Made by a program: the position numbers and the translations under genes | Notes under the pieces: generated by a model | What the model was told of the DNA's origin: nothing | Database searches by the model: none | What the model saw: only the letters and a program-made list of their open reading frames with translations | Assembly: GCF_000020225.1 (NCBI RefSeq) | Contig: NC_010655.1 | Location: 1,560,001 to 1,592,000 of the forward strand | Length of the DNA stretch: 32,000 bases | Origin: Akkermansia muciniphila ATCC BAA-835 | Lineage (GTDB): Bacteria; Verrucomicrobiota; Verrucomicrobiia; Verrucomicrobiales; Akkermansiaceae | Reading direction: 5' to 3' | Shown: one piece after another, positions 32 through 27,602 of the stretch | How positions within the stretch are numbered: position 1 is the first letter of the stretch | How the letters are laid out: each line of letters starts with the position of its first letter

Positions 32-697
32 ATGCCGGAGCAGGGGGCTTCATGGGCCGTTTTTATGGAAGACCCCCTTTCATTGGAGCAATGTGCCGGA
101 CGTCTGGAACGGCGTGGATTCCGGAGTTTTGTAGTGCCGGACCTGAGGGCGGCTGCGGAGGTTATGCGCGGCCTGGTGCGGGAGTTCAGGCCGTCGTCCG
201 CTTCCTATGGGGATTCCATGACCCTGAAGGATGCGGGCATTCTTGATGACCTGCGCTCCAATCCGGACATTCAGTTCTATGACGGCTTTGTTCCGGGCAT
301 GGTGCGGGAGGAGAAATGGGAAATCCGCCGCCAGGGCATGACGGCGGACCTGTTTTTAACCGGCGTCAATGCCGTCAGCATGGAAGGGACCCTGCACTGG
401 GTGGACATGGTGGGCAACCGTGTGGCTCCGGTGGCATTCGGACCCCGGCGCGTCATTTTGCTGGCCGGTTCCAACAAGCTGGTGGCAACGCCGGCAGAGG
501 CCCGGGAACGCATCCGCCGCATTGCGCCCCTGAACGCCAGGCGGCATGAAGGGTTCAGGACTCCCTGCATGCACACCGGAATCTGCGCGGATTGTAATTC
601 CCCGGACCGCCTGTGCAATATTCACATGTCCATTGTTAAATGCTTTCCCGAGGGAAGAATTTCCGTCATTCTGATGGAAGAACCCGGAGGACTTTGA
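32..697 (+). CDS. LUD-domain protein (DUF162; LutC/YkgG-like 'lactate utilization' family)
   Basis: 221-aa ORF. The core 'DLFLTGVNAVSMEGTLHWVDMVGNRVAPVAFGPRRVILLAGSNKLV' and the C-terminal Cys cluster 'TPCMHTGICADCNSPDRLCN' match stand-alone LUD-domain proteins as I remember them. The true start may be the internal ATG at 65 (MEDPLSLEQ...). The stop lies 3 nt before the next gene's ATG. Confidence 0.7.
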   Translation: MPEQGASWAVFMEDPLSLEQCAGRLERRGFRSFVVPDLRAAAEVMRGLVREFRPSSASYGDSMTLKDAGILDDLRSNPDIQFYDGFVPGMVREEKWEIRRQGMTADLFLTGVNAVSMEGTLHWVDMVGNRVAPVAFGPRRVILLAGSNKLVATPAEARERIRRIAPLNARRHEGFRTPCMHTGICADCNSPDRLCNIHMSIVKCFPEGRISVILMEEPGGL

Positions 698-700
698 CCC

Positions 701-1972
701 ATGCCTTTTCAAAACCGGATAGAAATCATGGCCCCGGCGGGGTCGTTTGAATCTCTGGCGGCCGCCTTGCAGGGCGGAGCGGACTCCGTGTACTTCGGAG
801 TAGGAAAGCTGAACATGCGTTCCCGCGCCACGGTCAATTTTTCGGAAGAAGATTTGCCGGAAATCGTCGAGCGTTGCCATGAGGCGGGCGCCAAAGCTTA
901 TCTGACACTGAATATCATTGTGTACGATGAAGAGCTGGAGGCGGTGCATGCCCTGTGCGACGCCGCCCGGAAAGCCGGTGTGGATGCCGTCATCGCTTCC
1001 GACCTGGCGGTGATTTCTTATGCGCGTTCCATTGGGCTGGAAGTCCATATGTCCGTGCAGGCCAACGTCTGCAACATGGCCTCCGTCAAATTTTACGCGC
1101 AGTACGCGGATGTGGTGGTGCTGGCCCGGGAACTCACCCTGGCGCAAATCAGGCATATCATTGAATCCATCCGGAAGGAGGGCGTGAAAGGCCCCTCCGG
1201 GGAGCTGCTGCGGGTGGAAATTTTCGCCCATGGGGCGTTATGTGTGGCCGTGTCCGGCAAATGCCACATGAGCCTGGCGGCCTACAACTCCTCCGCCAAC
1301 CGGGGGGCCTGCTTCCAGAACTGCCGCCGCGCCTACCGCGTGACGGATGAGGAAACGGGCAATGAACTGGTGATAGACAACAAATACGTGATGTCTCCCA
1401 AGGACCTGTGTACCATTCCGGTGCTGGACCAGCTTCTGGACGCGGGCGTTTCCGTGCTGAAGCTGGAAGGGCGCGGCCGTTCCTCGGATTACGTCAGGAC
1501 GGTTACCTCCGTGTACCGGGAAGCCGCGCGGGCATGCCAGGACGGAACCTTTTCCGCGGACAGGGCGGAAGCGTGGATGAAACGGCTGGAATCCGTTTTC
1601 AACCGGGGATTCTGGCAAGGCGGCTATTACCTGGGCGTGAAGTGGGGGGAATGGAGCGGTTCCGCCAACAGCCGCGCTGCCCTGTTGAAGATCCACATTG
1701 CCAGGGTAGAGAACTTTTATAAGAAGAACGGGGTGGCGGCCCTGTTCCTGGAAGCCGGCGGCCTGTCCGCGGGGCAGACCATCCTCATAACAGGCCCCAC
1801 TACGGGAGCCGTCCGCATGGAAGTGGCAGCCATGCGGAGGGAGACGGCAGAGGGCATGGAGCCCGTAGAAGCCGCTCAAAAGGGAGAAACCGTCTATCTG
1901 GCGGTTCCCGAACAGGTGCGCCGCCGGGACAAGGTGTACCTGCTGCGCCCCCGGATGCTGGAGGATGCCTGA
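701..1972 (+). CDS. Peptidase U32 family protein (Fe-S type; YhbU/YegQ/TrhP/UbiU-like)
   Basis: 423-aa ORF. The N-terminus 'IEIMAPAGSFESLAAALQGGADSVYFGV' is typical of U32. It has a complete Cx6Cx15Cx3C motif (CVAVSGKCHMSLAAYNSSANRGACFQNC, nt 1241-1324). 'KLEGRGRS' is typical of the family. Confidence 0.85.
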   Translation: MPFQNRIEIMAPAGSFESLAAALQGGADSVYFGVGKLNMRSRATVNFSEEDLPEIVERCHEAGAKAYLTLNIIVYDEELEAVHALCDAARKAGVDAVIASDLAVISYARSIGLEVHMSVQANVCNMASVKFYAQYADVVVLARELTLAQIRHIIESIRKEGVKGPSGELLRVEIFAHGALCVAVSGKCHMSLAAYNSSANRGACFQNCRRAYRVTDEETGNELVIDNKYVMSPKDLCTIPVLDQLLDAGVSVLKLEGRGRSSDYVRTVTSVYREAARACQDGTFSADRAEAWMKRLESVFNRGFWQGGYYLGVKWGEWSGSANSRAALLKIHIARVENFYKKNGVAALFLEAGGLSAGQTILITGPTTGAVRMEVAAMRRETAEGMEPVEAAQKGETVYLAVPEQVRRRDKVYLLRPRMLEDA

Positions 1973-2373: not shown

Positions 2374-5300
2374 TTGAATGAAAAAGAATTTCCCTGGCGT
2401 ATTATTTTAAAACCGTATGCCATGCCTGATTATATTTCCTTTCTGCGTCTTTTTTCATGTTCCTGCGCCTTGCTGTGTGCCGGAATGCTCCACGCTTCCG
2501 GTTTGCAGCCCTGGTTGCGGGAGCTGGACGTAATCCCGCCTGCGCCTTCCGCGAAAGAAAAGGATGCATGGATGAGGCAGGTATGGACGCGGACGGCGGA
2601 ATATGCGGCTTCCCTTTCCGAGCCTGCTGCCGCTGACGATTGCGGGGATGCGATGGTTTTGCTGGTTCCCGTATTTCAGGCGTGGCCGGACGGGAAGGCA
2701 GCAGGTGCCGCGCTGGCGGAAATTCTTTCCGTTCCCGCGGAGAGTATTGGAGCTGTTTCTTCCTGGGATGACCTGGTTAAGCATCAGGAAGCCATTCAGG
2801 AACGAGTCCGTTTCCTCAGGCTGAAGAAGCTGGCGGCCTATTATGACTCTGCGGCCATCCGCCGCGCGGTGAAGCGAAACCGGGACAAGTACGGGGAACG
2901 GTACGCCGGTGCGGAAGGTTTCCTGGCACGGCTGGATGAGTGGGAGAAGGAGCTGGGGCCGCTGGACCGGTGGGTGGAGCAGGCCGGGCCGGGACAGGCG
3001 GCCCTGCTGCGGGAGATGGTGGATCTGCGGAGAAAAGCCCTGATTGAAGCCCTGCCGGAACAGAACGGCCTGAAGGAATGGGTGAGCGTGCGGCGTTTCA
3101 ATCCGTCCGGGAAAAGTTCTTTCAATCATGACCGTCCGGCGAACTGGCAGGGTATTTCCAGCATGCCGGGGCCCGGGCGCAGATACCGCAGCGGCATTGT
3201 GAAATTTAACGGGGTTTCCTCTTCTTCCCCTGTGGAGCAGCTGCTGGCGGACGACCGCTGGGTCGGGCATCTGGATGTTGATTTTTCCGGGGAGAAGCTC
3301 ATGTTCACCGGGAACGGATTCGGCAAGAAGGAAAGCAGGCCCTGGGACGTTTTTGAGCTGGATTTGAAAACCGGGAAAAAGGAATCCCTTACCGCGCATA
3401 TGCCGGCGGATACGGACAGCTATAATTCCTGCTACCTGCCGGACGGCCGGATTATTTTCGTCAATACTTCCGGCATGCAGGGGGTGCCCTGCGTGGCCGG
3501 GGTGGATTACGTGGGCAACCTCCACCTTTACGACCGGGAAAAGAAAACGACCCGCCGGCTTACCTTTGACCAGGACAATAACTGGTTCCCCACCATGTTG
3601 CCGGACGGCAGGGTGATGTTCCTGCGCTGGGAGTACACGGAAAGTGCCCACTATTTCAGCCGCGTGCTGATGCACATGAATCCGGACGGCAGCGACCAGA
3701 AGGAATACTATGGTTCCAACTCCTACTGGCCCAACAGCTTGTTCAACGCACGGCCCCTCCCCGGCAGGCCGGGCATGTTTGCGGGCATTGTCAGCGGGCA
3801 CCATGGAGTCAAGAGGCTGGGGGAACTGGTCCTTTTTGACGTGAACAGGGGGCGCACCGCCACGGAGGGTGCCGTTCAGAAGATTCCGGGGTATGGAAAG
3901 CCCGTGGAAAACGTGACCAAAGATCAGCTGGTGCAGGGATTGAAGACTCCTTATTTCGCAGAACCTTATCCTTTGAATGACGAGTGTTTCCTGGCCGTTT
4001 CCTCCCCCTCCGGCAACCAGGGCGTGACCAATGTGGTCTGGTGCGACATATACGATAACATCGTTCCTCTCACGGCCTCCTCCTACTTCGTCTATGCAGA
4101 CCCCGCGCCCCTGGGGCCACGCAAAAAACCGTCCGTGTTGCATGACCGGGTGAAGACGGAAAGCAAGACGGCTACGGTTTATATTTCCGACGTATACCGG
4201 GGCCGCGCCATGGCCGGAGTGCCCAGAGGGGAAGCCAAGGCCCTGCGCGTGTTTATGTCCGAGTACAGCCCCCGCAATACGGGAAGCCACTATGCCATGG
4301 GCATGGAAAGCAACTGGGACTTGAAAGTTCTGTACGGCACCGTGCCCGTGAATCCTGACGGTTCCGCCATCTTCACGGCTCCCGCCTGCCAGCCTCTGAC
4401 GCTTCAGGTGCTGGACGGGGAGGGGCGCGCCCTGGCGCTGATGCGGAGCTGGTTTACCGCCATGCCGGGGGAAACGCTCAGCTGCATCGGCTGCCATGAA
4501 CGGCAGAACTGCGCTCCCCCCGCCAGGGCCGTCATGGCTTCCCGCCAGAAACCCGCTCCTATTGTTCCGTGGTACGGTCCGGCGCGCACTTTCTCCTTCA
4601 TGAATGAAGTGCAGCCCGTGCTGGACCGCCATTGCATACGCTGCCACACAGCGGAAGGCAAGGCCCGTGGAGGAGTGCCGGATTTCATGACATTGGAGGC
4701 CGTCAAGGGGGCTCCCGCCCCCGGTTCCGTCTCTTATTGGAACCTGCACCCCTATGTGCGCCGCAACGGCCCGGAGGGGAACTATCTGGGGCTGGCCCCC
4801 ACGGAGTTTTTCGCGGATACGTCGGAGCTTTACCAGCTCCTTAAAAAAGGCCACCATGGCGTGGAAATGCCGCAGGAGGACTGGAACCGCCTGGTCACGT
4901 GGATGGACATGAACGCCCCCTATCTGGGTGAATGGCCGGGAGAGCGCAATGAAGGGCTGCTGAAACGCCGTTATGACCTGCACGGCAGATTTTCAGGAGC
5001 GGAACGTAATTACGTGACGATGAAGGATTCCCTATTCCGGAGAAGCGCCGGCGTTTCCAAACCTGACGCCGGGAAGCCCATTGCTCGCACCGGAGGAAAG
5101 AGCGTTCCCGTTCCGGAACCGCGTAATGAAACGCTGACTGTGGATTTGGGCGACGGCGTGAACATGACATTCCGCCGCATTCCCGCAGGGAAGTTCAGGA
5201 TGGGGAATGAACGGGAAACACCGGCGGAACGTCCTGTTTCCACGGTGGGGATTGAAAGGCCGTTCTGGATGGGAGAGGCGGAAGTGACGTTGGAGCAATA

Positions 5301-5967
5301 CCGCCGCTTCGACCCGGAGTATGTTAACGGATGGTATGACATGCATTACAAGGACCAGGTGAGGCCCGGCTACGACATGGATGCCGATCCGCGTTTTCCC
5401 GTCATCCGGGTTCCTTGGGCCAGGGCCATGGAATTTTGCCGCTGGCTTTCCGGGAAAACCGGGAAAAAAGTGACCTTGCCTACGGAAGCGCAGTGGGAAT
5501 ACGCGGCCAGGGGGGGAGCTGATACGGATTTCTTTTTCGGGGAGCGGGATGCGGATTTTTCCGCGTATGCCAACCTGGGGGATGTGACCCTGAAGGAGCT
5601 GGCCGTTTCCGGCGTAGATCCCAGGCCGATTAAAAATCCCAACCGTTTCTGGGACTTCGTGCCGAGGGATGAGAAATACAATGACGGGAAGCTCCACCTG
5701 GCCCCCGTCAAGAGTTACAGGCCGAATGCCTACGGATTATACGACATGATCGGCAATGCCGCGGAATGGACCCGTTCCGAATACAGGCCTTACCCCTGGA
5801 AGGAAGGGGACGGGCGCAATGAAGGCCTGGACTCCCATGTTCCCCGTGCGGTGCGCGGCGGTTCCTGGTATGACCGTCCCAGGAGGGCCACGTCCTCCTG
5901 GCGCTGGGGCTATCCCGGCTGGCGTCCGGTGTACAACGTGGGGTTCCGGGTGATCATAGAAGACTGA
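2374..5967 (+). CDS. Large exported multidomain protein: helical N-terminal region, TolB/HzsA-like beta-propeller region, two CxxCH motifs, C-terminal FGE-sulfatase (SUMF1/EgtB/PvdO)-like domain
   Basis: 1197-aa ORF with a TTG start at 2374. The ATG at 2422 gives a better signal peptide (MPDYISFLRLFSCSCALLCAGMLHA). Propeller-like repeats: LPDGRIIF, MLPDGRVMFLRWEY, MNPDGSDQ. CIGCH lies at 4483-4497 and CIRCH at 4633-4647. The C-terminal stretch 'RVPWARAMEFCRWLSGKTGKKVTLPTEAQWEYAARGG...YGLYDMIGNAAEWT...RGGSW...VGFRV' is FGE-fold like. Confidence 0.8.
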   Translation: MNEKEFPWRIILKPYAMPDYISFLRLFSCSCALLCAGMLHASGLQPWLRELDVIPPAPSAKEKDAWMRQVWTRTAEYAASLSEPAAADDCGDAMVLLVPVFQAWPDGKAAGAALAEILSVPAESIGAVSSWDDLVKHQEAIQERVRFLRLKKLAAYYDSAAIRRAVKRNRDKYGERYAGAEGFLARLDEWEKELGPLDRWVEQAGPGQAALLREMVDLRRKALIEALPEQNGLKEWVSVRRFNPSGKSSFNHDRPANWQGISSMPGPGRRYRSGIVKFNGVSSSSPVEQLLADDRWVGHLDVDFSGEKLMFTGNGFGKKESRPWDVFELDLKTGKKESLTAHMPADTDSYNSCYLPDGRIIFVNTSGMQGVPCVAGVDYVGNLHLYDREKKTTRRLTFDQDNNWFPTMLPDGRVMFLRWEYTESAHYFSRVLMHMNPDGSDQKEYYGSNSYWPNSLFNARPLPGRPGMFAGIVSGHHGVKRLGELVLFDVNRGRTATEGAVQKIPGYGKPVENVTKDQLVQGLKTPYFAEPYPLNDECFLAVSSPSGNQGVTNVVWCDIYDNIVPLTASSYFVYADPAPLGPRKKPSVLHDRVKTESKTATVYISDVYRGRAMAGVPRGEAKALRVFMSEYSPRNTGSHYAMGMESNWDLKVLYGTVPVNPDGSAIFTAPACQPLTLQVLDGEGRALALMRSWFTAMPGETLSCIGCHERQNCAPPARAVMASRQKPAPIVPWYGPARTFSFMNEVQPVLDRHCIRCHTAEGKARGGVPDFMTLEAVKGAPAPGSVSYWNLHPYVRRNGPEGNYLGLAPTEFFADTSELYQLLKKGHHGVEMPQEDWNRLVTWMDMNAPYLGEWPGERNEGLLKRRYDLHGRFSGAERNYVTMKDSLFRRSAGVSKPDAGKPIARTGGKSVPVPEPRNETLTVDLGDGVNMTFRRIPAGKFRMGNERETPAERPVSTVGIERPFWMGEAEVTLEQYRRFDPEYVNGWYDMHYKDQVRPGYDMDADPRFPVIRVPWARAMEFCRWLSGKTGKKVTLPTEAQWEYAARGGADTDFFFGERDADFSAYANLGDVTLKELAVSGVDPRPIKNPNRFWDFVPRDEKYNDGKLHLAPVKSYRPNAYGLYDMIGNAAEWTRSEYRPYPWKEGDGRNEGLDSHVPRAVRGGSWYDRPRRATSSWRWGYPGWRPVYNVGFRVIIED

Positions 5968-5981
5968 TTGTTGAAATTGCC

Positions 5982-7844
5982 ATGAAACTGACAAAAATGT
6001 TCCGCGCTTCTGCGACTGCCCTTTGCTGCCTGCTGGCCCTCATTTCATGCAGGCAGGGACCGGATGCTGCTTCCGGCCCGCTGGCTCCGGTGGATGTGAA
6101 GGTCGTCGATCACCTGGTTGCCGTGCTGGGGCATGAGAGCTGCGTGCTGGAACTGGTGGACCCTGCTTCCGGGGAAAAGGTGAAAAGCATCCGGCTGGCC
6201 CAGCCTCCCAACGGAATGGCCGTGGATGGAGCAACGGCCTATGTGGCGGAAGGTGGCCCGCGCGGAGCAGTAGAAGTAGTGGACCTGGAAAGCGGGGCGT
6301 TGAAGCGTTCTTTTCCTGCCGGGCATACGCCCATGTCTCCCGTGGTGCGGGGGGGAAAGCTGTATGTGGCCTGCCGGTTTGATTCCCGCGTGCTGGAAAT
6401 GGACGCCGCTACCGGAACCGTGCTGGATTCCTGGAATGTCCCCCGTGAACCCGTAGCGCTGGCCGTTTCTCCGGACGGCAGGAAAATCTGGGCTGCCGGC
6501 CATTTGCCGGCCGGGGCTGCGGACGGGGATTTCACGGCTGCCGCGCTGACTCTGGTGGAAGATGGAAAAGCTGTCCATTTCCCGCTTTCCAACGGGACGC
6601 AGGGCGTGCGCGGCATGGCGATAAGCCCGGATGGCCGCTATCTGGCCGTGGCGCATGTATTGAGCCGGTACCAGGTGCCCACCACGCAGCTGGACCGCGG
6701 CTGGATGAACACGAATGCCGTGACGGTTATCGATACGGACGATCCGGACAAGCCCCATCCCGTTCTGCTGGATGACCCGGATGCGGGGGCGGCCAACCCG
6801 TGGGGCGTTTCTTTTTCCGGAGATGGCGGAAAACTGTTCGTGACGCATGCGGGGACGCATGAACTCTCCGTAATTGATTTCCCGGCCCTGCTGGAGCGCA
6901 TGAAGCGGGAAGGCCGGAGCAATGAGCCGGTTTCCGAAAGGCTTGGTTTCCTGCACGGTCTCCGCACCCGGATCGCTCTGCCCTTGAATGGCCCGCGCGC
7001 CGTGGCTTCCGATGGGGAAAACGTTTATGTGGCCGGCTACTTTTCTGATTCTCTGGCGGAAGTCTCCCTGAAGGATGCCTGCAAATCCAGGGCAATTCCC
7101 CTGAACGGCCAATTCCGGCCTTCCCGGGAAAAACTGGGGGAACGGTATTTTAATGATGCCTCCCATTGCTTCCAGGGGTGGCAGAGCTGCGCCACCTGCC
7201 ACCCGGACGGCCGGGTGGACGGCCTGAACTGGGATCTGCTGAATGACGGCATGGGCAACCCGAAAAATACGCGCACCATGTTCCTTTCTCACCGGACAAG
7301 CCCGGTGATGACGCTGGGCGTCCGCGCCTCTGCGGAAGTGGCCGTGACGGCAGGCTTTGTGCACATCCAGTTTCTGGAACCTTCCGGTGAATTGGCGGAA
7401 TGCGTGAATGCATACCTGAAAAACATGAAGGAAGTTCCCAGCCCGTTCCTGGTGGCGCATAACCCTTCCAAACAGCAGACAGGGGGGGAGGGGTGCGCCC
7501 AGTGCCATGCTCCCGGCGTGGAAAGGGGGGCTTTGTCCGAATCTGCCCGGAGGGGCAGGGAAGTGTTTAAAACAGCCGGGTGCGTGCGGTGCCACCCCCA
7601 TCCTTACTTCACTACCAAGGAACTGGTGGCCACGGGGACGGCCACGGGGCTGGATGAAGGTAAAAGCGTTCTGGTGCCCTCCCTGGCGGAAGTGTGGCGG
7701 ACCGCCCCTTACCTGCACGACGGCCGTGCGAAGACGATCCGGGAAGCCATCACGACATGCAATCCGGGGGATATCCGAGGGAAGACGAGTTCCCTGAATA
7801 ACCGTGAACTGGAGGATTTGATCAATTACGTGCAGTCCCTGTAA
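5982..7844 (+). CDS. Lipoprotein: YVTN-type beta-propeller fused to a di-haem cytochrome c peroxidase/MauG-like domain (three CxxCH)
   Basis: 620-aa ORF starting 14 nt after the previous stop. Lipobox 'LALISC'. Propeller repeats: SPDGRKIWAAG, SPDGRYLAVAH, SGDGGKLFVTH. CCP-like blocks: 'SCATCHPDGRVDGLNWDLLNDG..NPKNTRTM' and 'GCVRCHPHPYFT...PSLAEVWRTAPYLHDGRAKTIREAI'. CxxCH motifs at 7188-7202, 7494-7508 and 7581-7595. Confidence 0.85.
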   Translation: MKLTKMFRASATALCCLLALISCRQGPDAASGPLAPVDVKVVDHLVAVLGHESCVLELVDPASGEKVKSIRLAQPPNGMAVDGATAYVAEGGPRGAVEVVDLESGALKRSFPAGHTPMSPVVRGGKLYVACRFDSRVLEMDAATGTVLDSWNVPREPVALAVSPDGRKIWAAGHLPAGAADGDFTAAALTLVEDGKAVHFPLSNGTQGVRGMAISPDGRYLAVAHVLSRYQVPTTQLDRGWMNTNAVTVIDTDDPDKPHPVLLDDPDAGAANPWGVSFSGDGGKLFVTHAGTHELSVIDFPALLERMKREGRSNEPVSERLGFLHGLRTRIALPLNGPRAVASDGENVYVAGYFSDSLAEVSLKDACKSRAIPLNGQFRPSREKLGERYFNDASHCFQGWQSCATCHPDGRVDGLNWDLLNDGMGNPKNTRTMFLSHRTSPVMTLGVRASAEVAVTAGFVHIQFLEPSGELAECVNAYLKNMKEVPSPFLVAHNPSKQQTGGEGCAQCHAPGVERGALSESARRGREVFKTAGCVRCHPHPYFTTKELVATGTATGLDEGKSVLVPSLAEVWRTAPYLHDGRAKTIREAITTCNPGDIRGKTSSLNNRELEDLINYVQSL

Positions 7845-7858
7845 AGGGGCGGGAGGGC

Positions 7859-8986
7859 ATGATGACGGCGAATGCACCTGAACAACTGGAATGGTCCGGA
7901 AAAAACGGGGCGGAAGAACGCTTCTTCTGCATGACGGCGGAGCCGGGCGCAAGTTTTGAGGAAGAACTGCATTCCCTGATGACCAGGTACCGCAATCTGG
8001 GGGGAGGGGAGGAAGATGAATTCCTGTTGCGTTTCCATGTCAGCGACCCGGTGCGCCAGTCGGCTGCGCTGCGGCGGATGATAGGGGAGAGGAACTCCTA
8101 TGTTTCCATGGTTGGCCAGCCCCCTGCGAACGGGGCCCGCGTAGCTCTGGAAGCCTGGCACATCGGCGGAATGTTGGGAAAAAGGCATATGGCGGAACAG
8201 GGCGGAACGGTCGTGGAAGCCCTCCGCGTTCATTACCGGCTGTTCCTGGCGGGCAAGAGGGAATTCTCCTCCCCGGACAGCTGCGGCCAGATGCGGGAGG
8301 AATTCCGCTGGCTGGACCGGATTGCCGCCTTACAGGGGGGAGCCGTGCCGGATTTGATTCACCGCACCTGGATTTATTGCCGGGACATTGACAACAACTA
8401 CCGGGGATTGGTGGAAGGCCGCAACGGATGCTTTGACCGTTACGGGCTGACTCCGGAGAGCCATTTCATCGCCAGTACCGGCATTGAAGGCTGTACGGAG
8501 CTGCCGGGCCGCCTGCTGCATATGGACAGTCTGGGCATCGCGGGGCTGGAGCCCGGGCAGGTCCGGTACATGGAAGCGCCGGACTACCTGTCCCCCACGC
8601 ATGTGTACCGGGTGGCCTTTGAGCGCGGCGTCCGTATTGTGTACGGGGACCGCTCCCATTATTTCCTTTCCGGCACCGCCAGTATTGACGCGGAGGGAAA
8701 CATTGTCCATCCGGGGGACGTGGTGGGCCAGACGGCCCGCACCCTGGAAAATATGAGCGCCCTGATGGAAAGGAGCGGGGGAAGCCTGTCCGACCTGAAG
8801 CAGGCCGTAGTGTACCTGCGCGACTGGGCGGACCGGGAAACGGTCCGGAACCGGCTGATGGACTCTCCGCTGGCCGCTGTGCCGCATGTGATGCTGAAAG
8901 CCCCTGTCTGCCGCCCCGGCTGGCTGGTGGAAATAGACGGAATAGCCGTTAATGGAGCCGGAGAGTCCGCCTTTGCCCCCTTGTAA
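7859..8986 (+). CDS. FkbO/Hyg5/XanB2-type chorismatase-like protein (RidA/YjgF fold at the C-terminus)
   Basis: 375-aa ORF starting 14 nt after the previous stop, with no signal peptide. The C-terminal stretch 'HYFLSGTASIDAEGNIVHPGDVVGQTARTLENMSALMERSGGSLSDLKQAVVYLRD' has the YjgF/RidA-like signature. That signature preceded by a ~230-aa N-terminal extension is what I associate with chorismatases. The assignment is by recall only. Confidence 0.6.
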   Translation: MMTANAPEQLEWSGKNGAEERFFCMTAEPGASFEEELHSLMTRYRNLGGGEEDEFLLRFHVSDPVRQSAALRRMIGERNSYVSMVGQPPANGARVALEAWHIGGMLGKRHMAEQGGTVVEALRVHYRLFLAGKREFSSPDSCGQMREEFRWLDRIAALQGGAVPDLIHRTWIYCRDIDNNYRGLVEGRNGCFDRYGLTPESHFIASTGIEGCTELPGRLLHMDSLGIAGLEPGQVRYMEAPDYLSPTHVYRVAFERGVRIVYGDRSHYFLSGTASIDAEGNIVHPGDVVGQTARTLENMSALMERSGGSLSDLKQAVVYLRDWADRETVRNRLMDSPLAAVPHVMLKAPVCRPGWLVEIDGIAVNGAGESAFAPL

Positions 8987-9065: not shown

Positions 9066-9449
9066 ATGACTTATCGCCTTAATACGGACCGTCTGGTTTT
9101 TTTTTCCGTGCTGTTGTGGGTGCTGTTGCCGCCGGGTGTTTTTGCCTGGGAAGGGAATCCTCCGGGTCCGGATAATGTGCGGTGGCTGGAGCAGTTCTGT
9201 TCCAGCTACATGCAGTTTCTGACCCTGGGCGGCGTGTTGTGCGCGGTTATTGGTTTTGTGTGCGCCGCCCTGGTCTGGCTGGTGCATCGTCTGGACTGGG
9301 CGCGGAGCTTGAAAATCAGCGTGCTGTTTGTCATGTCCATCCTGTGCCTGGTTTTGTATGGCGGCTCCCTTTCCTTTGCCGTGTTTTATCTTCCCCTGGC
9401 CCTGATTAACCCCGCCGTGTATTGTTTCAGCGTCGGCCGGGCGGAATGA
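9066..9449 (+). CDS. Small hypothetical integral membrane protein
   Basis: 127-aa ORF with about four hydrophobic segments (VFFSVLLWVLLPPGVFA, FLTLGGVLCAVIGFVCAALVWLV, ISVLFVMSILCLVLYGG, FAVFYLPLALINPAVY). No family recognised. Contains a T9 run at 9097-9105. Confidence 0.5.
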   Translation: MTYRLNTDRLVFFSVLLWVLLPPGVFAWEGNPPGPDNVRWLEQFCSSYMQFLTLGGVLCAVIGFVCAALVWLVHRLDWARSLKISVLFVMSILCLVLYGGSLSFAVFYLPLALINPAVYCFSVGRAE

Positions 9450-9681: not shown

Positions 9682-11322
9682 TTATAAAGATTGCGGATGT
9701 AATGAGCGGATGCTCCAGTCACCGAATCCTTCCCCTTGGTTGCGTTCTGCCGCAAAACGTGCAAATACTGGTCGGAGCACGTCTACGATTTCTTTTACGG
9801 ATACAGATTCCTGATAGACGAAGCCTAGTCTGTCTCCTCTTCTGGAACCGCCCATCCAGATATTGTACTTGCCCGGACCTCTGCCGACGAAAGCCAGTTC
9901 TGCCAGATACGGCCTGGAGCATCCGTTGGGACACCCGGTCATGCGTATAGAAATTTCTTCGTCCCATAGCCCCAGTTCTTTTAACTGTGATTCCAGTTCA
10001 TCCACCAGTTTTGGAAGTAGTCTTTCGGAGTCTGTAAGAGCCTGCGGACAAAATGGCAGGCTGGTACAAGCGGAGGAATTGCGCCTGAGTCCCGAATCGT
10101 TGGGGAGAAGATTGTACTTCCTAATGATGGATTTGATTCGCACGGCAGTATCTGGTGTGATGCCGTCAATGACCAGATTTTGATTACCTGTGATGAAAAA
10201 ATCTCCTTGATGAATGGAAGCTATTTCGTGAAAAGCGGTTTTAAGCTGTTGCCTGTTTGAATTTTGGATGCGGCCGCCTTCAATTTCAATGGTTTGTCGG
10301 CCAGGAACATCTGCGGCATCTCCGTTCGTAGATAATGAAAAAGGTTTGGCCTCTTGAAGAGGAAATGGAAGGCGTGTTGCAAGTTCGTTAGTGAACCAGC
10401 CCAGTCCTTTACCGGCAATGGTGTACCTGAGCCGGGATGTTTTTCTGTTGCTGCGGGTGCTGAATTCTTTATGGATCAAAAGCACCTGCCGGGCTACTTC
10501 CTCCACCTGTTCCGGGAAACAGAATCCGATAATATCCGCAAGGCGGGGGAAAGATCCGGGATTGCCGTAAGCATAGCCCATTCCTCCGCCGGCCAGGATA
10601 TCATATCCCAGGAGTTTTCCCTCTTTTTCAATAGCCACGAAGCTCAAGTCCTGGGCGTATACATCCACATCATTTTCCGGGGGAAGCGTAAAAGCGATTT
10701 TAAATTTGCGCGGCAAATATCCGGGACCGTACAGAGGCTCCTCCTCCTCGCCCGAGTAGATTCGTTTGGCATCCAGCCATATTTCATGATAGGCATGTGT
10801 CTGCGGTTCCAGTTTTCGGGAGAGTTCCTGGGCTTGATTGAAGACTGTCTCATGGATGCCGGAATCTTCCGGGTGCAGAGAAACCATGACATTGCGTGTG
10901 GCGTCTCCACTGGCGGCAATCGTGGTGATGGCCGCGTGATGGATATCTTTCATGGTCTGTTTCAAATCCTGCTTGACGACTCCGTGGATTTGAATGGCTT
11001 GGCGTGTCGTAAGTTTAAGAGTGCCGTTACCGAATTGGTCGCTTAGCGTTTCCGCAGCCAGCCATTGACTGGGTGTGATACGGCCTCCGGGGAGGCGTAA
11101 CCTCAACATGAATAACCAATTTCGTCCCTGTCCGTTTTTCTTTCGGATAAGCCGTTCATCTCGGTTATCCTGCTGGGTGATTCCATGGAATTTCAGCAGA
11201 AATTCTTCTTCGGACGGGAAATGGGTAATGCTATCGTCATGGAGGAGGTTAGAGATATTCCCTCTGAGGAAATCGCTTTCCTCCTTGATTCGTTCGTTGG
11301 ATGTGTATCCTTCTTTAATCAT
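9682..11322 (-). CDS. cysI: Assimilatory sulfite reductase, sirohaem/[4Fe-4S] haemoprotein
   Basis: 546 aa. The N-terminus 'ERIKEESDFLRGNI...FLLKFHGITQQDNRDER...MLRLRLPGGRITPSQW...LKLTTRQAIQIHGV' is collinear with E. coli CysI. Cluster cysteines are present: 'CTSLPFC' and 'TGCPNGC'. Confidence 0.9.
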   Translation of the reverse strand: MIKEGYTSNERIKEESDFLRGNISNLLHDDSITHFPSEEEFLLKFHGITQQDNRDERLIRKKNGQGRNWLFMLRLRLPGGRITPSQWLAAETLSDQFGNGTLKLTTRQAIQIHGVVKQDLKQTMKDIHHAAITTIAASGDATRNVMVSLHPEDSGIHETVFNQAQELSRKLEPQTHAYHEIWLDAKRIYSGEEEEPLYGPGYLPRKFKIAFTLPPENDVDVYAQDLSFVAIEKEGKLLGYDILAGGGMGYAYGNPGSFPRLADIIGFCFPEQVEEVARQVLLIHKEFSTRSNRKTSRLRYTIAGKGLGWFTNELATRLPFPLQEAKPFSLSTNGDAADVPGRQTIEIEGGRIQNSNRQQLKTAFHEIASIHQGDFFITGNQNLVIDGITPDTAVRIKSIIRKYNLLPNDSGLRRNSSACTSLPFCPQALTDSERLLPKLVDELESQLKELGLWDEEISIRMTGCPNGCSRPYLAELAFVGRGPGKYNIWMGGSRRGDRLGFVYQESVSVKEIVDVLRPVFARFAAERNQGEGFGDWSIRSLHPQSL

Positions 11323-11337
11323 AATATTTTCTGTGGG

Positions 11338-12117
11338 TTAAGCTAGATTTGTCCCCCAGCGTTTGTAGATAGATTGTTCCAGGGGGGAGAAGATGAGTTT
11401 ATCTGAGAGCAGGCCTAAGAGAATAATAACGAACATGATTCCCATGACCTGCTCCATGGAATTGAGTTCTCTTCCGAAGTGCAGGAGCTGTCCCAATCCC
11501 AATCCTGTCAGGATGGGAACAAAAATTTCTGCGGACATCAGGGAGCGCCAGGAGAAGGCCCAACCTTGCTTCATGCCGCTGACGATGAATGGTGCAGAGG
11601 CCGGAAGCGTGACGAAGAGCAGCGTGTAGGCAGAACCGGCTCCCATTGTCCGAGCTGCGCGAGCATAAATTGGAGGGATGTTGGCAAGTCCATTTTCTGT
11701 GGCCAGTATGACTGACCAGACAGTACCCATGATGACAACGAACAAGATGGCCGCTTCTTCCTGACCGAACCATAGGATGGCCAGAGGGACCCAGCAAACG
11801 CTGGGAAGCCCTTGAAATCCCAGTGCCAGAACTCCGATGGTGTTTCTTATTATTTGGAAACGGGCAGATAAAAGTCCTGCTGGAATCCCGATGGAGATTC
11901 CTGCCAGGTACCCCAGGAACAGTCTCCTAATGGTAACGAACGTAGCGGACCAGAGAGAGTTGTCCCTGATTGCTTCTTCAAGATAGCCGCTTATGGTGGA
12001 AGGTGCCGGGAATAGGAAAGGCCTCCACCAGCCGGACAGAGACCCGTATTCCCATATAGCTATAGCTAGAAAGATGAATACTGAGGATTGGATGATGCTT
12101 TTTATGGAAGAATGCAT
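11338..12117 (-). CDS. ABC transporter permease, NitT/TauT family (SsuC/TauC-like)
   Basis: 259 aa, about 6 TM segments. The loop 'YARAARTMGAGSAYTLLFVTLPASAPFIVSGMKQGWAFSWRSLMSAEI' is EAA-type and typical of SsuC/TauC permeases. Overlaps the ATPase gene by 16 nt. Confidence 0.9.
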   Translation of the reverse strand: MHSSIKSIIQSSVFIFLAIAIWEYGSLSGWWRPFLFPAPSTISGYLEEAIRDNSLWSATFVTIRRLFLGYLAGISIGIPAGLLSARFQIIRNTIGVLALGFQGLPSVCWVPLAILWFGQEEAAILFVVIMGTVWSVILATENGLANIPPIYARAARTMGAGSAYTLLFVTLPASAPFIVSGMKQGWAFSWRSLMSAEIFVPILTGLGLGQLLHFGRELNSMEQVMGIMFVIILLGLLSDKLIFSPLEQSIYKRWGTNLA

Positions 12118-12899
12118 GATGTCTGTGTGTCTTGTTTTTCTTCTGCGGTTCTGGAAACCAATTTTAATGCACGTGTGATGTTTGAGGATAGCCGGGCTAC
12201 TCCCGGATCATTGATTTGGCGCGGTCGCGGCAAACGAATGCAGAATTCTCCGCAAATACGTCCAGGGTGGGAGGAAAATAAAATGACTCTGTCTCCCAGG
12301 CATACGGCTTCCCGTACATTATGAGTAACAAAGACGACGGTAATCCCATGTCCGGCACAAATGGCCTGGATATCCGCATAAAGTTGTTCCCTGGTCATGG
12401 CATCCAATGCCGCGAAGGGCTCATCCATCAGAAGAACCCTGGGGCGCAATGCAAGAGCCCGGGCTATGGCTACGCGTTGTTTCATTCCTCCGGAGAGTTC
12501 ATGGATACGAGCTTGCGTGAAGTTGTCCAAGCCTACTGATTTCAGGTTTTTCAAAGCTATTTGGCAACGTTTTCTGCGGGGAATTCCGGTAAATCGGAGA
12601 CCGAATTCTACATTGTGCAGCACGTTTAACCACGGGAACAGGGCGAAATCCTGAAAAACGACTGTCCTGTCCGGTCCAGGACCTGAGATTATTTCTCCAT
12701 CATAGGAAATGCTTCCCGTATCCGATTTGATCAGACCGGCGATCATATTCAGCAGAGTTGTTTTGCCACAACCGCTTGGACCTACCAGGCAGATGAATTC
12801 TCCTTCCCCTATGTCCAGATTGGCAGAAGAAAGCGCCAGAAGCGATTTTTTTCTGGAAAAATAACTTTTGGAAACGTTTCGTATGGATAATCTACTCAT
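12102..12899 (-). CDS. ABC transporter ATP-binding protein, NitT/TauT family (SsuB/TauB-like)
   Basis: Walker A 'GPSGCGKTT', signature 'LSGGMKQRVAIARAL', Walker B 'LLMDEPFAALD'. I trimmed the track ORF (12102-12986) to the ATG at 12899 (MSRLSIRNVSK...). That start overlaps the upstream gene's stop by 8 nt. Confidence 0.9.
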   Translation of the reverse strand: MSRLSIRNVSKSYFSRKKSLLALSSANLDIGEGEFICLVGPSGCGKTTLLNMIAGLIKSDTGSISYDGEIISGPGPDRTVVFQDFALFPWLNVLHNVEFGLRFTGIPRRKRCQIALKNLKSVGLDNFTQARIHELSGGMKQRVAIARALALRPRVLLMDEPFAALDAMTREQLYADIQAICAGHGITVVFVTHNVREAVCLGDRVILFSSHPGRICGEFCIRLPRPRQINDPGVARLSSNITRALKLVSRTAEEKQDTQTSCILP

Positions 12900-13917
12900 G
12901 GCTGGGATTATTTTTATCATTCCGGATGATGCCTTCGACACGGGGAAGTTCCTTGTAAAATCCAGTCCGTACCATATCCTTGGCAAATGCTTGGAGCTTT
13001 TCTTCGGATATTTTATTAGTGGGAACTAACCTGGGCCATGCATGGAGAATTAAAGAGGGATCAATGCTGGAACGGGTGAGTTCCCTCAGTTCTTCTACGA
13101 CGATTTTTTGAGCTTCCTGGGGATGTTCGATAATCCAGAAAGTGAGTTCTCTGTGAGCTTCAATAATGGCCTGTGCCACGTCCGGCTGTTTTTCCAGAAT
13201 TCTCTTTTGGGCTGTCAGAACAGTAGTTACGGCATCCGTTTCAAGAAACAGGAGCTTGCCTCCGGCTTCCTTTTCCAGGCGGCTAATCCATGGTTCTACA
13301 GTCCAGGATCCGTCTAGTTTTCCTTGACGAAAGAGAGATATCTGTTCTGGATTGGGGGTAGGAAGTATGCTTGCGTCTCCTCTGGATTGAGTGACTGCTA
13401 CGCCTCCCAGGGCCAACCATGTCCGGCAGGCTATATCCTGAGTATTGCCCAATTGGGGGGTAGCGATGATTTTCCCTTGAAAGTCTTTTTGTGTTCGTGC
13501 TTCGGAATGGGTGGGGACGACCAGTCCGGACCCTCCCTGTACGGCTCCTGCTACTATTTGCAGGAGAGTTCCATTGGATTTGGAATACGCATTAATGGCA
13601 GGGCTCGAACCAACGTAGGTAAAATCCAGGGAATTGGCGAACATGGCTTCCATGGCACTGGGGCCGGCGTTGTAAGCATACCATAGGATGGAGATGTTTT
13701 TCCCCGTCCGTTCAAAGATGCGTTTTTCAAACCATCCCTCCCCCGTGCGGCTGAAATGCCTGGCAACCAACCCCTGGACATGGGTTACGTTGGGGAAAAG
13801 GCCAAAGCGTATTTGATCCTGCCGTTCGGATGCTTCCCGACAGGATGCCAGAAATGCTGGAACCAGGAGAGCGCCAATACAAAGAAGAGCATCTAATGCA
13901 AGAGGCAGAGTTTTCAT
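12892..13917 (-). CDS. ABC transporter substrate-binding lipoprotein (NMT1/SsuA/TauA-like)
   Basis: I trimmed the track ORF to the ATG at 13917, which gives 'MKTLPLALDALLCIGALLVPAFLASC' (signal peptide plus lipobox). It has a periplasmic-binding-protein-like body and sits directly upstream of the NitT/TauT ATPase and permease. Confidence 0.8.
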   Translation of the reverse strand: MKTLPLALDALLCIGALLVPAFLASCREASERQDQIRFGLFPNVTHVQGLVARHFSRTGEGWFEKRIFERTGKNISILWYAYNAGPSAMEAMFANSLDFTYVGSSPAINAYSKSNGTLLQIVAGAVQGGSGLVVPTHSEARTQKDFQGKIIATPQLGNTQDIACRTWLALGGVAVTQSRGDASILPTPNPEQISLFRQGKLDGSWTVEPWISRLEKEAGGKLLFLETDAVTTVLTAQKRILEKQPDVAQAIIEAHRELTFWIIEHPQEAQKIVVEELRELTRSSIDPSLILHAWPRLVPTNKISEEKLQAFAKDMVRTGFYKELPRVEGIIRNDKNNPSHE

Positions 13918-13951
13918 AAAATGGTAGAACAGGTATTTAAATGGGATAAAA

Positions 13952-15679
13952 TTAAAATTCCACATAGAGAGTGCGCGCCAGAAGAAACGCAGTATTTTCG
14001 TTTGCTTTCGCAGGGGGGAGGATGCGGTCTGCCGTTTCTGGCGCGGAGACGACATTCCCAAGCCAGATGCAGTAGGTTCCCTTTGCTTTTCTGGGCAGGA
14101 CGGGAAGGCCCGGCAGCACTGCAATGCTCATGAGCCCCGCTTCGGCCAGCAGGCCTGAGGCATTGACGATTTCTCTAGCGGATCTGCCCCATACGCCTTC
14201 TGCCTTGAAATCCAGACCGTAGGTATGAGCCTTGAGCCGATGGAGTTCCCGTTCCAGCTGTTTGGCGAAGCTGCGTGCCAGTTCGCTGTCTTCTCCCGCT
14301 ACGTAAATTTGTTTTCCACCATGCCCGAAGGTTTCAGCGCGTTCATCGCTTGAAACGAATGTTTGGAGTTGTTCCTTTTCTTTTTCGGGAACCTTATCTC
14401 TGTGAGGGGGGCGGAGCATACCAGCTCCCGCTGTGACGTTATTCAGCGGGTCAATCAGGATGAAAGCTCCTCCGGAACGGTTATCCCGGTAATAATCATA
14501 GAACAAGGGGGAACTGGTTTCCAGGACGATACGGCCGACATGATTCAGAGGAAGCTGCGTTGCATGGCGGCTTTCCAGTGTATTGACGTCTATGTCGTAT
14601 TGGAGTTCTACTATCCTCCCCTGGATATTTCTGCCCGCATGGCGCATAATGTATTTGCTTCTGGGAAGAAGGGGTTTTTCAGACATCCAGATGACACGGG
14701 CTTCCAGCCGATCCTCTATATGGGGGAGATTCCCTTTTTTGACAATCATGTCACCGCTGCTGATATCTATTTCATCCTCAAGTTCCAATACGACGGCTTG
14801 GGGAGAGAATGCTTCTTCCAGTTCTCCGTCCGGAGTAACGATTCTTTTGATCCGGCTGTTTTGAAACGAAGGCAACGTCACGATAGGATCACCCCTGCGG
14901 ATGGAGCCGGAGGTAATGGAGCCGGCGAACCCCCGGAAATCGAGATTGGGCCGTATGACTGTCTGTACCGGAAAGCGGAAATCCCGGAGATTCCTGCTGT
15001 CGCTGGCATCCAGCGTTTCCAGAATGGAAAGCAGATGATCGCCCTGGTACCAAGGCGTTTTTCCTGTTGTTTGCGTCACATTTTCCCCTTCAATGGCGGA
15101 AATGGGAACGAAACGAACATCCGGGATATTCAACTGTTGCGTGAAGCTTCCGAATTCTTCTTCAATTTTCCGGAATTTTTCTTCAGAGTATTTCAAAAGA
15201 TCCATCTTGTTGACGGCTACGATGAGGTGCCGTATTTTCAGAAGAGAGACGATGAACGCATGCCGTTTCGTTTGTGTGAGTACTCCATGGCGAGCATCAA
15301 TCAGGATGATGGCGGCATCTGCCGTGGAAGCTCCGGTGGCCATGTTCCGGGTGTATTGTTCATGTCCGGGGCAGTCGGCAATGATGAATTTGCGGCGTGG
15401 GGTGGTGAAGTACCGGTAGGCTACATCAATGGTTATTCCCTGTTCCCGTTCCGCTCTAAGGCCGTCCAGCAACAGGGCGTAATCAATTTTACCTGCTCCA
15501 GCAGTTCCATTTTTTTCACTGGCTTTGCGCAGCTCTGCCAGCTGGTCGTCAAAAATCAGTTTGCTGTCATAAAGGAGGCGTCCGATGAGTGTAGATTTCC
15601 CGTCGTCCACGGAACCGCAGGTAAGTACGCGTAGCAGGCTTTTATTTTCGTGTTCGTTCAGGTATGAGTCGATGTCCAT
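13952..15679 (-). CDS. cysN: Sulfate adenylyltransferase subunit 1 (GTPase) with a truncated, P-loop-less APS-kinase-like C-terminal domain
   Basis: 575 aa. GTPase motifs 'GSVDDGKST', 'DCPGHEQY', 'NKMD' and an overall CysN-like sequence. The last ~140 aa align to the start of CysC but read 'YVAGEDSELA' where CysC has the '[10 protein letters not shown]' P-loop. Confidence 0.9.
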   Translation of the reverse strand: MDIDSYLNEHENKSLLRVLTCGSVDDGKSTLIGRLLYDSKLIFDDQLAELRKASEKNGTAGAGKIDYALLLDGLRAEREQGITIDVAYRYFTTPRRKFIIADCPGHEQYTRNMATGASTADAAIILIDARHGVLTQTKRHAFIVSLLKIRHLIVAVNKMDLLKYSEEKFRKIEEEFGSFTQQLNIPDVRFVPISAIEGENVTQTTGKTPWYQGDHLLSILETLDASDSRNLRDFRFPVQTVIRPNLDFRGFAGSITSGSIRRGDPIVTLPSFQNSRIKRIVTPDGELEEAFSPQAVVLELEDEIDISSGDMIVKKGNLPHIEDRLEARVIWMSEKPLLPRSKYIMRHAGRNIQGRIVELQYDIDVNTLESRHATQLPLNHVGRIVLETSSPLFYDYYRDNRSGGAFILIDPLNNVTAGAGMLRPPHRDKVPEKEKEQLQTFVSSDERAETFGHGGKQIYVAGEDSELARSFAKQLERELHRLKAHTYGLDFKAEGVWGRSAREIVNASGLLAEAGLMSIAVLPGLPVLPRKAKGTYCIWLGNVVSAPETADRILPPAKANENTAFLLARTLYVEF

Positions 15680-15724
15680 AATGGTAAAAATAAGAGGTAT
15701 CGTCAGAATGGTTCATAATAGGGG

Positions 15725-16636: not shown

Positions 16637-16654
16637 TTTGTATATTTTTGGTTA

Positions 16655-17338: not shown

Positions 17339-17394
17339 GAATGTTGGCGCTGGTTGAAGGTGGATAGCCGTATCCGGTAGAAAAGAACGGGATG

Positions 17395-20477: not shown

Positions 20478-20499
20478 GGGATGGTGAAGGAGAATGGGG

Positions 20500-22254: not shown

Positions 22255-22291
22255 GGAAGGTGGATGGATGGGAGGGAAAGGGTTGGATGGT

Positions 22292-24646: not shown

Positions 24647-24669
24647 GACGGCAGAGAGGAGAAGTTGGA

Positions 24670-24705
24670 GGGCAGGACTCCGGCGGGCGGGCCGGAGTCC
24701 TGCCC
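24670..24705 (-). promoter_or_regulatory. Intercistronic pstS-pstC stem-loop (15-bp perfect stem)
   Basis: GGGCAGGACTCCGGC (24670-24684) pairs perfectly with GCCGGAGTCCTGCCC (24691-24705) across a 6-nt loop. It lies between the pstS stop (24738) and the pstC start (24646). There is no U-tract, so it is more likely an mRNA-stability or attenuation element than a full terminator. Confidence 0.55.
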
Positions 24706-24737
24706 CGGCATGTGTTTACGGCACGGGAAGGGAGTGT

Positions 24738-27518: not shown

Positions 27519-27548
27519 TGCCGCGTGCCTGCACAGGAAAGCCCGTTG

Positions 27549-27574: not shown

Positions 27575-27602
27575 GTTCGGAAACGGGATTCAGGCATGCC
27601 GC

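Follow-up and report, generated by a model that had tools for sequence, protein, structure and literature searches.

Akkermansia muciniphila encodes a pair of predicted haem proteins with homology to the subunits of hydrazine synthase

Introduction

Akkermansia muciniphila is a mucin-degrading bacterium of the human gut, and two adjacent genes of its genome code for proteins that resemble, subunit by subunit, the hydrazine synthase (HZS) of the anammox Brocadiia. The window that was analysed is a stretch of 32,000 nucleotides from strain ATCC BAA-835 (contig NC_010655.1, positions 1,560,001 to 1,592,000), and all positions given below count from its first letter. Gene 1 (open reading frame, ORF, 2374-5967, plus strand) is followed after 14 nt in the ORF list by gene 2 (ORF 5982-7844, plus strand). 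We think it likely that the two products are subunits of an extracytoplasmic haem c complex which is homologous to HZS by subunit and by domain.

In the HZS of Kuenenia stuttgartiensis (HzsA, HzsB and HzsC; PDB 5C2V) the propeller of the alpha subunit is followed by two haem domains, the first of which is called the middle domain; beta is made up of a propeller with seven blades, and gamma is a di-haem subunit that resembles the cytochrome c peroxidases (CCPs) and MauG. The Akkermansia pair has the same subunit logic and domain order, with beta and gamma fused in gene 2 as they are in Scalindua, and the 5C2V chains are the best PDB matches of both genes by sequence as well as by fold. There are also differences. 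Sequence identity to the Kuenenia enzyme is 15-25%, the gene order is alpha and then beta-gamma where anammox bacteria have the reverse, and the pair carries three extras: a domain with the fold of the formylglycine-generating enzyme (FGE), a helical domain at its N-terminus, and one haem more on the beta-gamma protein, which makes three.

Results

Gene 1 codes for an exported, HzsA-like di-haem protein of 1181 residues with a C-terminal FGE-like domain (2422-5967, plus strand; ORF list, Pfam and Foldseek). Behind a signal peptide of about 26 residues (2422-2499; ...GMLHAS followed by G), in a region where the AlphaFold model has a pLDDT below 50 for residues 1-24, comes an all-helical domain at about residues 29-217 (2506-3072), which was delimited from the secondary structure of the model and for which no family match was found. 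It is followed by a TolB-like beta-propeller at about residues 219-590 (3076-4191), recognised by the strand pattern of the model and by a profile alignment to residues 53-398 of HZS alpha. The HZS_alpha middle domain (4228-4500; Pfam PF18582, E 3e-25, 89 bits against a cut-off of 26.6) ends in the haem motif CIGCH (4483-4497) and aligns to residues 451-560 of 5c2v_A, including the CSGCH motif of that chain. The second cytochrome c domain (4579-5001), with the motif CIRCH (4633-4647) and a conserved histidine pair, His811/His812, aligns to residues 639-766 of 5c2v_A, which is the haem alpha-II domain.

As a single sequence, gene 1 gave a weak match to chain A of 5C2V. A profile made from the FGE-free part of the protein and its FGE-less homologues, searched against the PDB, matched 5c2v_A at E 4.8e-41 in four stretches across residues 53-766 of 782, so that propeller, middle domain and second haem domain are all covered, and besides this chain it found nothing better than 1e-8. 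The fold comparison agrees, as the AlphaFold model (pLDDT 87.8) has 5c2v_A as its top PDB match in Foldseek (E 8e-28, 802 aligned columns, TM 0.63), with PvdO and FGE structures, which cover the C-terminal domain, ranking after it. Both haem motifs are present in all 101 homologues, and Cys357 and a SYWPN motif in the propeller are likewise invariant among them.

Gene 2 (5982-7844, plus strand; exact match to ACD05115.1) codes for a 620-residue lipoprotein that is a homologue of fused HzsB-HzsC, with three CxxCH motifs. Its lipoprotein signal peptide (5982-6050), with the lipobox LISC and the lipidated Cys23, precedes a seven-bladed YVTN-type beta-propeller at about residues 36-373 (6087-7100; model pLDDT about 95, Foldseek and profile matches) that has a blade insertion and an LDD...NP loop in common with HZS beta. 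The remainder, residues 377-620 (7110-7841), is a haem domain of the CCP/MauG/HZS-gamma type, identified by Pfam CCP_MauG and by a profile match to 5c2v_C, and it contains CATCH at residue 403 (7188-7202), CAQCH at residue 505 (7494-7508) and CVRCH at residue 534 (7581-7595). The Pfam match is marginal (28.7 bits against a cut-off of 25.6) and covers the N-terminal part of the model only. The relation to HZS is clearer: the best NCBIfam model is that of the beta-gamma fusion (hydrazine_BC, E 2e-32), and the best PDB matches are 5c2v_C (HZS gamma, 9e-21) and 5c2v_B (HZS beta, 3e-20), reaching 1.6e-33 and 5e-43, respectively, with the family profile. Foldseek places 5c2v_B on top for the AlphaFold model (pLDDT 89.7; E 9e-25, target-normalised TM 0.83).

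The first and the last haem motif of gene 2 occur in 111 of 111 homologues, and the extra one, CAQCH, which sits in a short insert, in 77 of them. Where a three-haem version is paired with an alpha-like gene, that gene bears an FGE domain (12 of 12 loci, mostly of one Akkermansia-centred lineage). One more cysteine, Cys396 (7167-7169), seven residues ahead of CATCH, is invariant in the 111 homologues, and its position is a serine in HZS gamma. Gene 1 has a counterpart in Cys357 (3490-3492), which lies in a propeller loop outside the CxxCH motifs. Each of these two cysteines may form an additional cross-link to a haem, serve as an axial ligand or be active in redox chemistry.

Residues that are specific for HZS are missing. 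In HZS, Tyr591, four residues past the haem histidine, ligates haem alpha-I, and His587 and Cys303 bind zinc (PMC12758564). The residue four past the haem ligand His692 of gene 1 is Asn696 and not a tyrosine, and an ordinary haem with His ligation is therefore expected at the first site of gene 1. In the profile alignment Cys303 (chain residue 276, in YGNC) aligns to an invariant YGSNS motif, as Asn433/Ser434 of gene 1. His772, the distal ligand of haem alpha-II, falls on the conserved GHH motif of gene 1 (His811/His812), and for this reason the bis-His electron-transfer haem is likely kept. The HZS beta loop PVCEAENGQVFTNN aligns with VPTTQLDRGWMNTNA of gene 2, so the loop is retained, with Gln and Asp at the Glu positions. 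In HZS this loop constricts the tunnel, and one of these positions is presumably that of its conserved Mg-binding glutamate.

For the gamma part the comparison is more difficult. Residues 104-163 of gamma, the region of Cys165/Asp168 and of the third covalent bond to haem gamma-I, are outside the HMMER alignment; there is no conserved cysteine in residues 434-500 of gene 2, and the invariant Cys396 lies elsewhere. The position of gamma His144, or of the CCP tryptophan, corresponds by an extrapolated alignment approximately to the invariant Met443, Thr444 and Leu445 of gene 2, where no Trp or His is conserved. The NCBIfam equivalog scores are 29.5 bits against a cut-off of 800 for alpha (NF052339) and 112.1 against 1250 for beta-gamma (NF052342), 10- to 27-fold too low, with 76.8 against 625 for gamma and 61.8 against 560 for beta. 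Since the tyrosine ligand, the zinc site and probably the beta glutamate are missing and these scores fall so far short, the pair is, as read from its sequence, not a hydrazine synthase.

Homologues of gene 2 were collected in 80 genomic loci from Verrucomicrobiota, Planctomycetota, Acidobacteriota, Bacteroidota, Armatimonadota and other phyla. An alpha-like gene is found within 8 kb of the beta-gamma-like gene in 58 of these, usually directly adjacent, and it carries an FGE domain in 22 of the 58. Every Akkermansia locus with an FGE-bearing alpha gene has the order gene 1 and then gene 2. In three loci (L042, L058 and L080) the alpha-like and beta-gamma-like parts are joined in one ORF of 1415-1430 residues with four CxxCH motifs, in the domain order HZS_alpha, YVTN propeller and CCP/cytochrome c. 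The family is large. A full scan with the alpha-like core gave 4808 representative clusters (50% clustering) at E <= 1e-3 and 1219 at E <= 1e-30.

These results agree with most of what the first-pass annotation of this DNA had proposed. It had placed the two ORFs 14 nt apart, with an exported gene 1 product (there is a hydrophobic signal sequence) and a lipoprotein in gene 2 (lipobox L-I-S-C), had named all five CxxCH motifs, with correct positions for the two of gene 1, and had read gene 2 as a YVTN propeller fused to a CCP/MauG-like domain and the pair as having the alpha / beta-gamma architecture of HZS with some other chemistry. All of this was borne out, the architecture by Pfam, profile and fold matches to the 5C2V chains and the other chemistry by the missing residues. 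The middle region of gene 1 does match HzsA, as does the rest of the protein, and the haem motifs and the gene neighbourhood are conserved in the way it expected. The substrates it gave as examples (NO, hydroxylamine, peroxide or a small N or S compound) are to be read as guesses. What has to be revised is gene 1, where the end and the reading frame stand and the start at 2374 most likely does not. Its account of the propeller and haem parts was right, and it left out the FGE-like domain, which it named among its checks only; that profile search did give a match.

The FGE-like domain makes up the C-terminal 260 residues of gene 1 (5176-5955; Pfam PF03781, E 1e-42). Its best PDB matches by sequence are PorK/GldK, PvdO and FGE, and Foldseek gives PvdO, with FGE structures at a TM of about 0.65. 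The copper-binding cysteines of the catalytic site, Cys336 and Cys341 in human FGE, have no equivalent here: the active-site segment of gene 1 (RGGSWYDRPRRATSSWR, the RGGSW... region) is free of cysteine, the only cysteine of the domain is Cys1006 at a structural position, and there is none downstream of it in gene 1. The domain is thus predicted to have the fold of an FGE and, with the copper-binding cysteine pair missing, to be non-catalytic, so that it cannot be an FGE. In this it is like its best matches PvdO and GldK/PorK, which have the same non-catalytic fold, likewise lack the copper-binding cysteines and are likewise active in the cell envelope. Unlike them, it is fused to a di-haem HzsA-like protein, and there are no genes for pyoverdine or type IX secretion nearby.

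An FGE domain is present in 30 of 33 diverse relatives of the alpha-like core, and several of these relatives also have F5/8-type-C (NedA-like galactose-binding), Laminin_G_3, SASA (sialate acetylesterase) or NPCBM modules. Some FGE-less relatives bear F5/8-type-C and LRR domains instead. Because of these modules there is a hint that the alpha-like subunit may be directed towards glycans, which would fit the lifestyles of the hosts.

A number of the 80 loci deserve separate mention. Nine FGE-less loci (L016, L024, L035, L036, L039, L050, L053, L056 and L057) have two alpha-like paralogues side by side, mostly one with two CxxCH motifs and the other with three, which suggests heteromeric or alternative alpha subunits. 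In a Prevotellaceae metagenome-assembled genome (MAG) a fused ResB/CcsA gene, of system II cytochrome c biogenesis, lies directly downstream of an FGE-bearing alpha-like gene (L073:13923-16358). It can be argued from this position that the CxxCH motifs really bind haem, and in that locus genes for haem attachment seem to accompany the pair. More genes of cytochrome c biogenesis than elsewhere are reported for phylogroup AmI of A. muciniphila (PMC8262928). A MAG labelled 'Candidatus Kuenenia sp.' (L072, CAZZJC010000061.1) has a 1155-residue beta-gamma-like homologue that is not of the HZS type and is 38% identical to gene 2, with an alpha-like gene with a single CxxCH on the opposite strand; either anammox bacteria also hold the non-HZS family or the contig is mis-binned. 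Other neighbours were sulfatases (9 loci), GFO/IDH/MocA oxidoreductases (8), histidine kinases (8) and fucosidases (5), and also GH2, GH123 and CotH. As candidates for linked genes these were rejected, as none is by our estimate clearly above what is expected by chance in glycan degraders.

The only other gene that is recurrently linked to the pair in the 80 loci is gene 3 (7859-8986, plus strand; ACD05116.1), which begins 14 nt past the end of gene 2. It codes for a 375-residue FkbO/Hyg5-like protein with a C-terminal RidA (L-PSP) domain, identified by Pfam L-PSP and by PDB matches that include FkbO (4bps) and 5ag3. The NCBIfam model chori_FkbO_Hyg5 (TIGR04444) matches at 4e-13 and 49.3 bits, which is below its cut-off of 325, and distant homologues match FkbO_Hyg5-like_N plus L-PSP, an architecture in common with the FkbO/Hyg5 chorismatases. 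Homologues of gene 3 adjoin beta-gamma-like genes in 29-31 of the 80 loci, directly downstream in 25, and nine of the loci linked to gene 3 have no alpha-like gene in view. No signal peptide was found in any of the gene 3 homologues, and the protein is for this reason taken to be cytoplasmic. With a gap of 14 nt on either side of gene 2, the three genes are predicted to be one co-transcribed operon.

The ORF of gene 1 as called mechanically has 1197 residues and a TTG start at 2374. Nearly all database homologues, including the NCBI protein of A. muciniphila, have 1181, and so the true start is most likely the ATG at 2422 (MPDYISF...). The products of genes 1, 2 and 3 are identical to proteins of A. 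muciniphila ATCC BAA-835, which in the databases are named 'SUMF1/EgtB/PvdO family' (gene 1), 'putative surface layer protein, with cytochrome c domain' or 'YncE family' (gene 2) and 'Endoribonuclease L-PSP' or 'Rid family hydrolase' (gene 3). The sulfate-assimilation locus next door is Amuc_1294 to Amuc_1301 (PMC8262928), and by counting back from it we infer that genes 1, 2 and 3 are about Amuc_1290, Amuc_1291 and Amuc_1292. Two long ORFs on the minus strand opposite genes 1 and 2 (2455-4983, 842 residues, and 6045-7952, 635 residues) most likely owe their existence to the high GC content and the codon bias, and no sign was seen that they are genes. Scans of the window for promoters, terminators, Rfam families and tRNA genes gave nothing informative.

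The other genes of the window belong to sulfate assimilation, phosphate transport and the U32 and LUD families. A 127-residue hydrophobic protein is encoded 79 nt past gene 3 (9066-9449, plus strand), with a sub-threshold match to TrbC/VirB2 pilins and no NCBIfam match, and this may be the last gene of the operon. Upstream of gene 1 (32-1972, plus strand) there is a LUD-domain protein followed by a U32-family protein. In NCBIfam the latter comes closest to the prephenate-dependent hydroxylases TrhP and UbiU, with scores under the cut-offs of these models. Together with the chorismatase-like gene 3, the haem pair is thereby flanked by two folds related to chorismate or prephenate. The U32/LUD pair is kept in 5 of 12 loci of close Akkermansia relatives, not always beside gene 1.

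Downstream on the minus strand (9682-18324) lie a sulfite reductase, an ABC transporter, CysN, CysD, CysH and CysK. The GC content of this stretch is markedly lower (0.48-0.51 over about 10-20 kb) than that of its flanks (0.57-0.61), and according to PMC8262928 phylogroups AmII and AmIV as well as one strain of AmI lack the locus. Together these two findings suggest that it is a horizontally acquired, strain-variable island. A link between the haem pair and this locus was considered and rejected: the two are on opposite strands and differ in GC content, and the locus is absent in AmII/AmIV (PMC8262928) while the pair is kept in all other Akkermansia species recovered. The phosphate-transport cluster (19698-27518) has two PstB-like ABC ATPases, a 784-residue permease with BPD_transp_1, and PhoU. 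Three ORFs (20494-21774, 24603-25796 and 27525-28547) have no Pfam match.

Discussion

The three natural alpha-beta-gamma fusions are strong indirect evidence for a physical complex, and that the two proteins are homologous to HZS subunits and form a complex is in our opinion highly probable. What the complex does is a different matter, and each of the specific chemistries discussed here is at best a doubtful possibility. We hypothesize that the two proteins make up a complex of the HZS kind, which would have four to five haems and the lipid tail of gene 2 as its anchor. In it, the first haem of the gamma-like domain would react with a small oxidant. Because of the CCP/MauG ancestry and the presence of the family in aerobes, peroxide is ranked first and nitric oxide (NO) second; a peroxide-driven oxidation in particular is possible but doubtful. 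The chain of haems, among them the second haem of the alpha-like protein, which is probably bis-His ligated, would carry electrons or an intermediate from the gamma-like site to the open haem of the alpha-like subunit, and a second substrate would be converted there. Perhaps the lectin-like FGE domain, together with glycan-binding modules of the kind seen in relatives, binds this substrate or serves to locate it.

Several observations do not sit well with such a complex. An alpha-like gene within 8 kb is missing in 22 of the 80 loci; some of these are on truncated contigs, while one (L013) has full flanks. Pairwise similarities of gene 1 and gene 2 correlate weakly (r 0.45 over 53 loci, 0.23 without Akkermansia), and we give this mirror-tree correlation no weight either way. 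The co-conserved gene 3 is cytoplasmic where the haem pair is exported, and a complex of genes 1 and 2 leaves it unexplained. The tryptophan between the haems of CCP and MauG is not visible in gene 2 by the extrapolated alignment, where Met443 is nearby, and the position of the CCP methionine ligand, in the PYMHDG motif, is Leu578. Finally, an electron donor for the pair is not evident in the window.

In its C-terminal half gene 2 resembles the bacterial di-haem CCPs, MauG and MbnH by its fold and by the arrangement of two haems, the PxL...APY.HDG segment included, and a further parallel is the idea of an oxidant-reactive haem that drives distant chemistry. One alternative is a plain periplasmic peroxide-detoxifying CCP, in which gene 2 reduces H2O2 with electrons that pass through the haems of gene 1, and there is no second catalytic site. 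Such an enzyme would protect an oxygen-tolerant inhabitant of the mucus. Pfam CCP_MauG is above its cut-off, the CCP structures 3o5c and 1iqc are matched, the family is found in aerobes and anaerobes alike, and the host lives at the oxic-anoxic interface of the mucus (PMC8262928). We nevertheless regard this as unlikely, since the nearest relatives are HZS subunits and not CCPs, and neither the inter-haem tryptophan nor a sixth ligand of the CCP (Met) or MauG (Tyr) kind is evident. Unlike those enzymes, gene 2 is also fused to a propeller and has the extra Cys396 and the extra CxxCH insert. A plain peroxidase would moreover leave unexplained a conserved alpha partner of 900 residues with its own open-type haem domain, the fusions and the glycan modules.

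Another alternative is a conversion of nitrogen oxides. In the way that has been proposed for HZS gamma, haem 1 of gene 2 would reduce NO from the host to hydroxylamine, and the alpha-like site would reduce this further or condense it with an amine. The closest homology of the pair is to the sole enzyme known for such a conversion, the surroundings of haem gamma-I (SCAxCH...WDL...G.G..KNT) are strongly common with HZS gamma, gene 2 keeps the beta loops for which a role in lining or regulating the tunnel has been proposed, and the RidA-like gene 3 would fit a quenching of reactive nitrogen intermediates. Against it stand the loss of two features of alpha, the haem ligand Tyr591 and the zinc site at Cys303, and probably of the beta glutamate (see also PMC12758564), the absence of nitrogen-cycle genes from the window, and the location of gene 3 in the cytoplasm when the haem proteins are exported. 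The family is also far too common in ordinary heterotrophs to belong to a specialist nitrogen pathway, and we find this explanation quite improbable.

A long shot is that the pair and its thousands of relatives in glycan degraders are HZS-like tunnel enzymes with two active sites and a reaction that is new to biology. This could be a peroxide- or NO-driven oxidation or cross-linking of a glycan- or protein-bound group, or a chemistry of the gut mucus in which N-O or N-N bonds are formed or cleaved on nitrogen species that come from the host. Positioning the substrate would then fall to the FGE-like lectin domain, and the FkbO/RidA-like enzyme would act on the product or provide a co-substrate.

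Two further explanations can be given little room. Gene 1 might be a working FGE that matures the mucin sulfatases of Akkermansia with electrons from the haems, for which the strong Pfam FGE-sulfatase match, the database name of the homologues and the sulfatase genes in 9 of the 80 loci could be cited. An FGE needs two copper cysteines where this domain has Cys1006 only, which largely refutes the idea; in addition the top matches, PorK/GldK and PvdO, are members that are not FGEs, the domain is missing from the alpha-like homologues in 36 of the 58 paired loci, and sulfatase neighbours are by our own estimate about as frequent as expected by chance in sulfatase-rich genomes, so that we consider it very improbable. 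That the pair is a genuine hydrazine synthase, with a cryptic anammox-type chemistry in the gut, has the overall architecture and fold in its favour and practically no chance of being true, given the equivalog scores, the absent catalytic residues, the lack of any gene for hydrazine dehydrogenase, hydroxylamine oxidoreductase (HAO) paralogues or other nitrogen-cycle enzymes in the 32-kb window, which is all that this search covered, and the same verdict for related clades in PMC12758564.

We thus return to the HZS-homologous haem c complex, which has to be seen in the light of two recent papers. In 2023, hzsA-like genes were described directly upstream of fused hzsBC-like genes in Phycisphaerae UBA1845, and a broader enzyme family was suggested (PMC10732223). 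Hagglund et al. 2025 (PMC12758564) reported systematically on alpha and beta-gamma homologues whose genes lie together in Planctomycetota, Desulfobacterota and Opitutus, divided them into clades I-IV, and concluded that with key residues lost they cannot make hydrazine. HZS-like pairs outside the anammox bacteria are therefore no longer new, and the statement of the first-pass annotation that it knew of no described function for such a pair is right insofar as no function has been assigned, whereas the pairs as such are in the literature. A supplementary table of PMC12758564 even lists gene 7 of CAJKMG010000009.1, from Akkermansia sp905200945, as a match to Scalindua HzsBC, and this is the gene 2 orthologue of our locus L001; it also lists an Opitutales 'SUMF1/EgtB/PvdO' protein that matches HzsA.

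The published pairs are like that of Akkermansia in having the alpha-like gene upstream of the fused beta-gamma-like gene, in having lost the catalytic residues of HZS and in having no assigned function. They differ in that clades I-III have a tryptophan at the position of gamma His144 and FG-GAP/CRTAC1 neighbours (PMC12758564), neither of which is seen in Akkermansia, and the same paper calls the alpha homologues few, as opposed to the 4808 representatives of the alpha-like core found here. Akkermansia, the FGE fusion, the single-chain fusions and the FkbO/RidA-like neighbour are not discussed in either paper, and we did not find the third haem or the size of the family discussed in the literature. 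A search on Amuc_1286 to Amuc_1291 gave no paper, and one that combined hydrazine synthase with Akkermansia nothing relevant.

Conclusions

HZS has long been held to be an orphan enzyme, and its relatives are the only route to the origin of its two-haem tunnel chemistry. A practical warning is that hzs-like matches in metagenomes are no evidence of anammox. The pair is found in the type strain of A. muciniphila, which can be cultivated, is prominent in medicine and has a transposon mutant library, and this makes an uncharacterised family of at least 4800 sequence clusters approachable by experiment. If it is true that the complex handles peroxide, NO or glycan-bound substrates, this would bear on how Akkermansia survives at a mucus surface that is exposed to O2 and NO.

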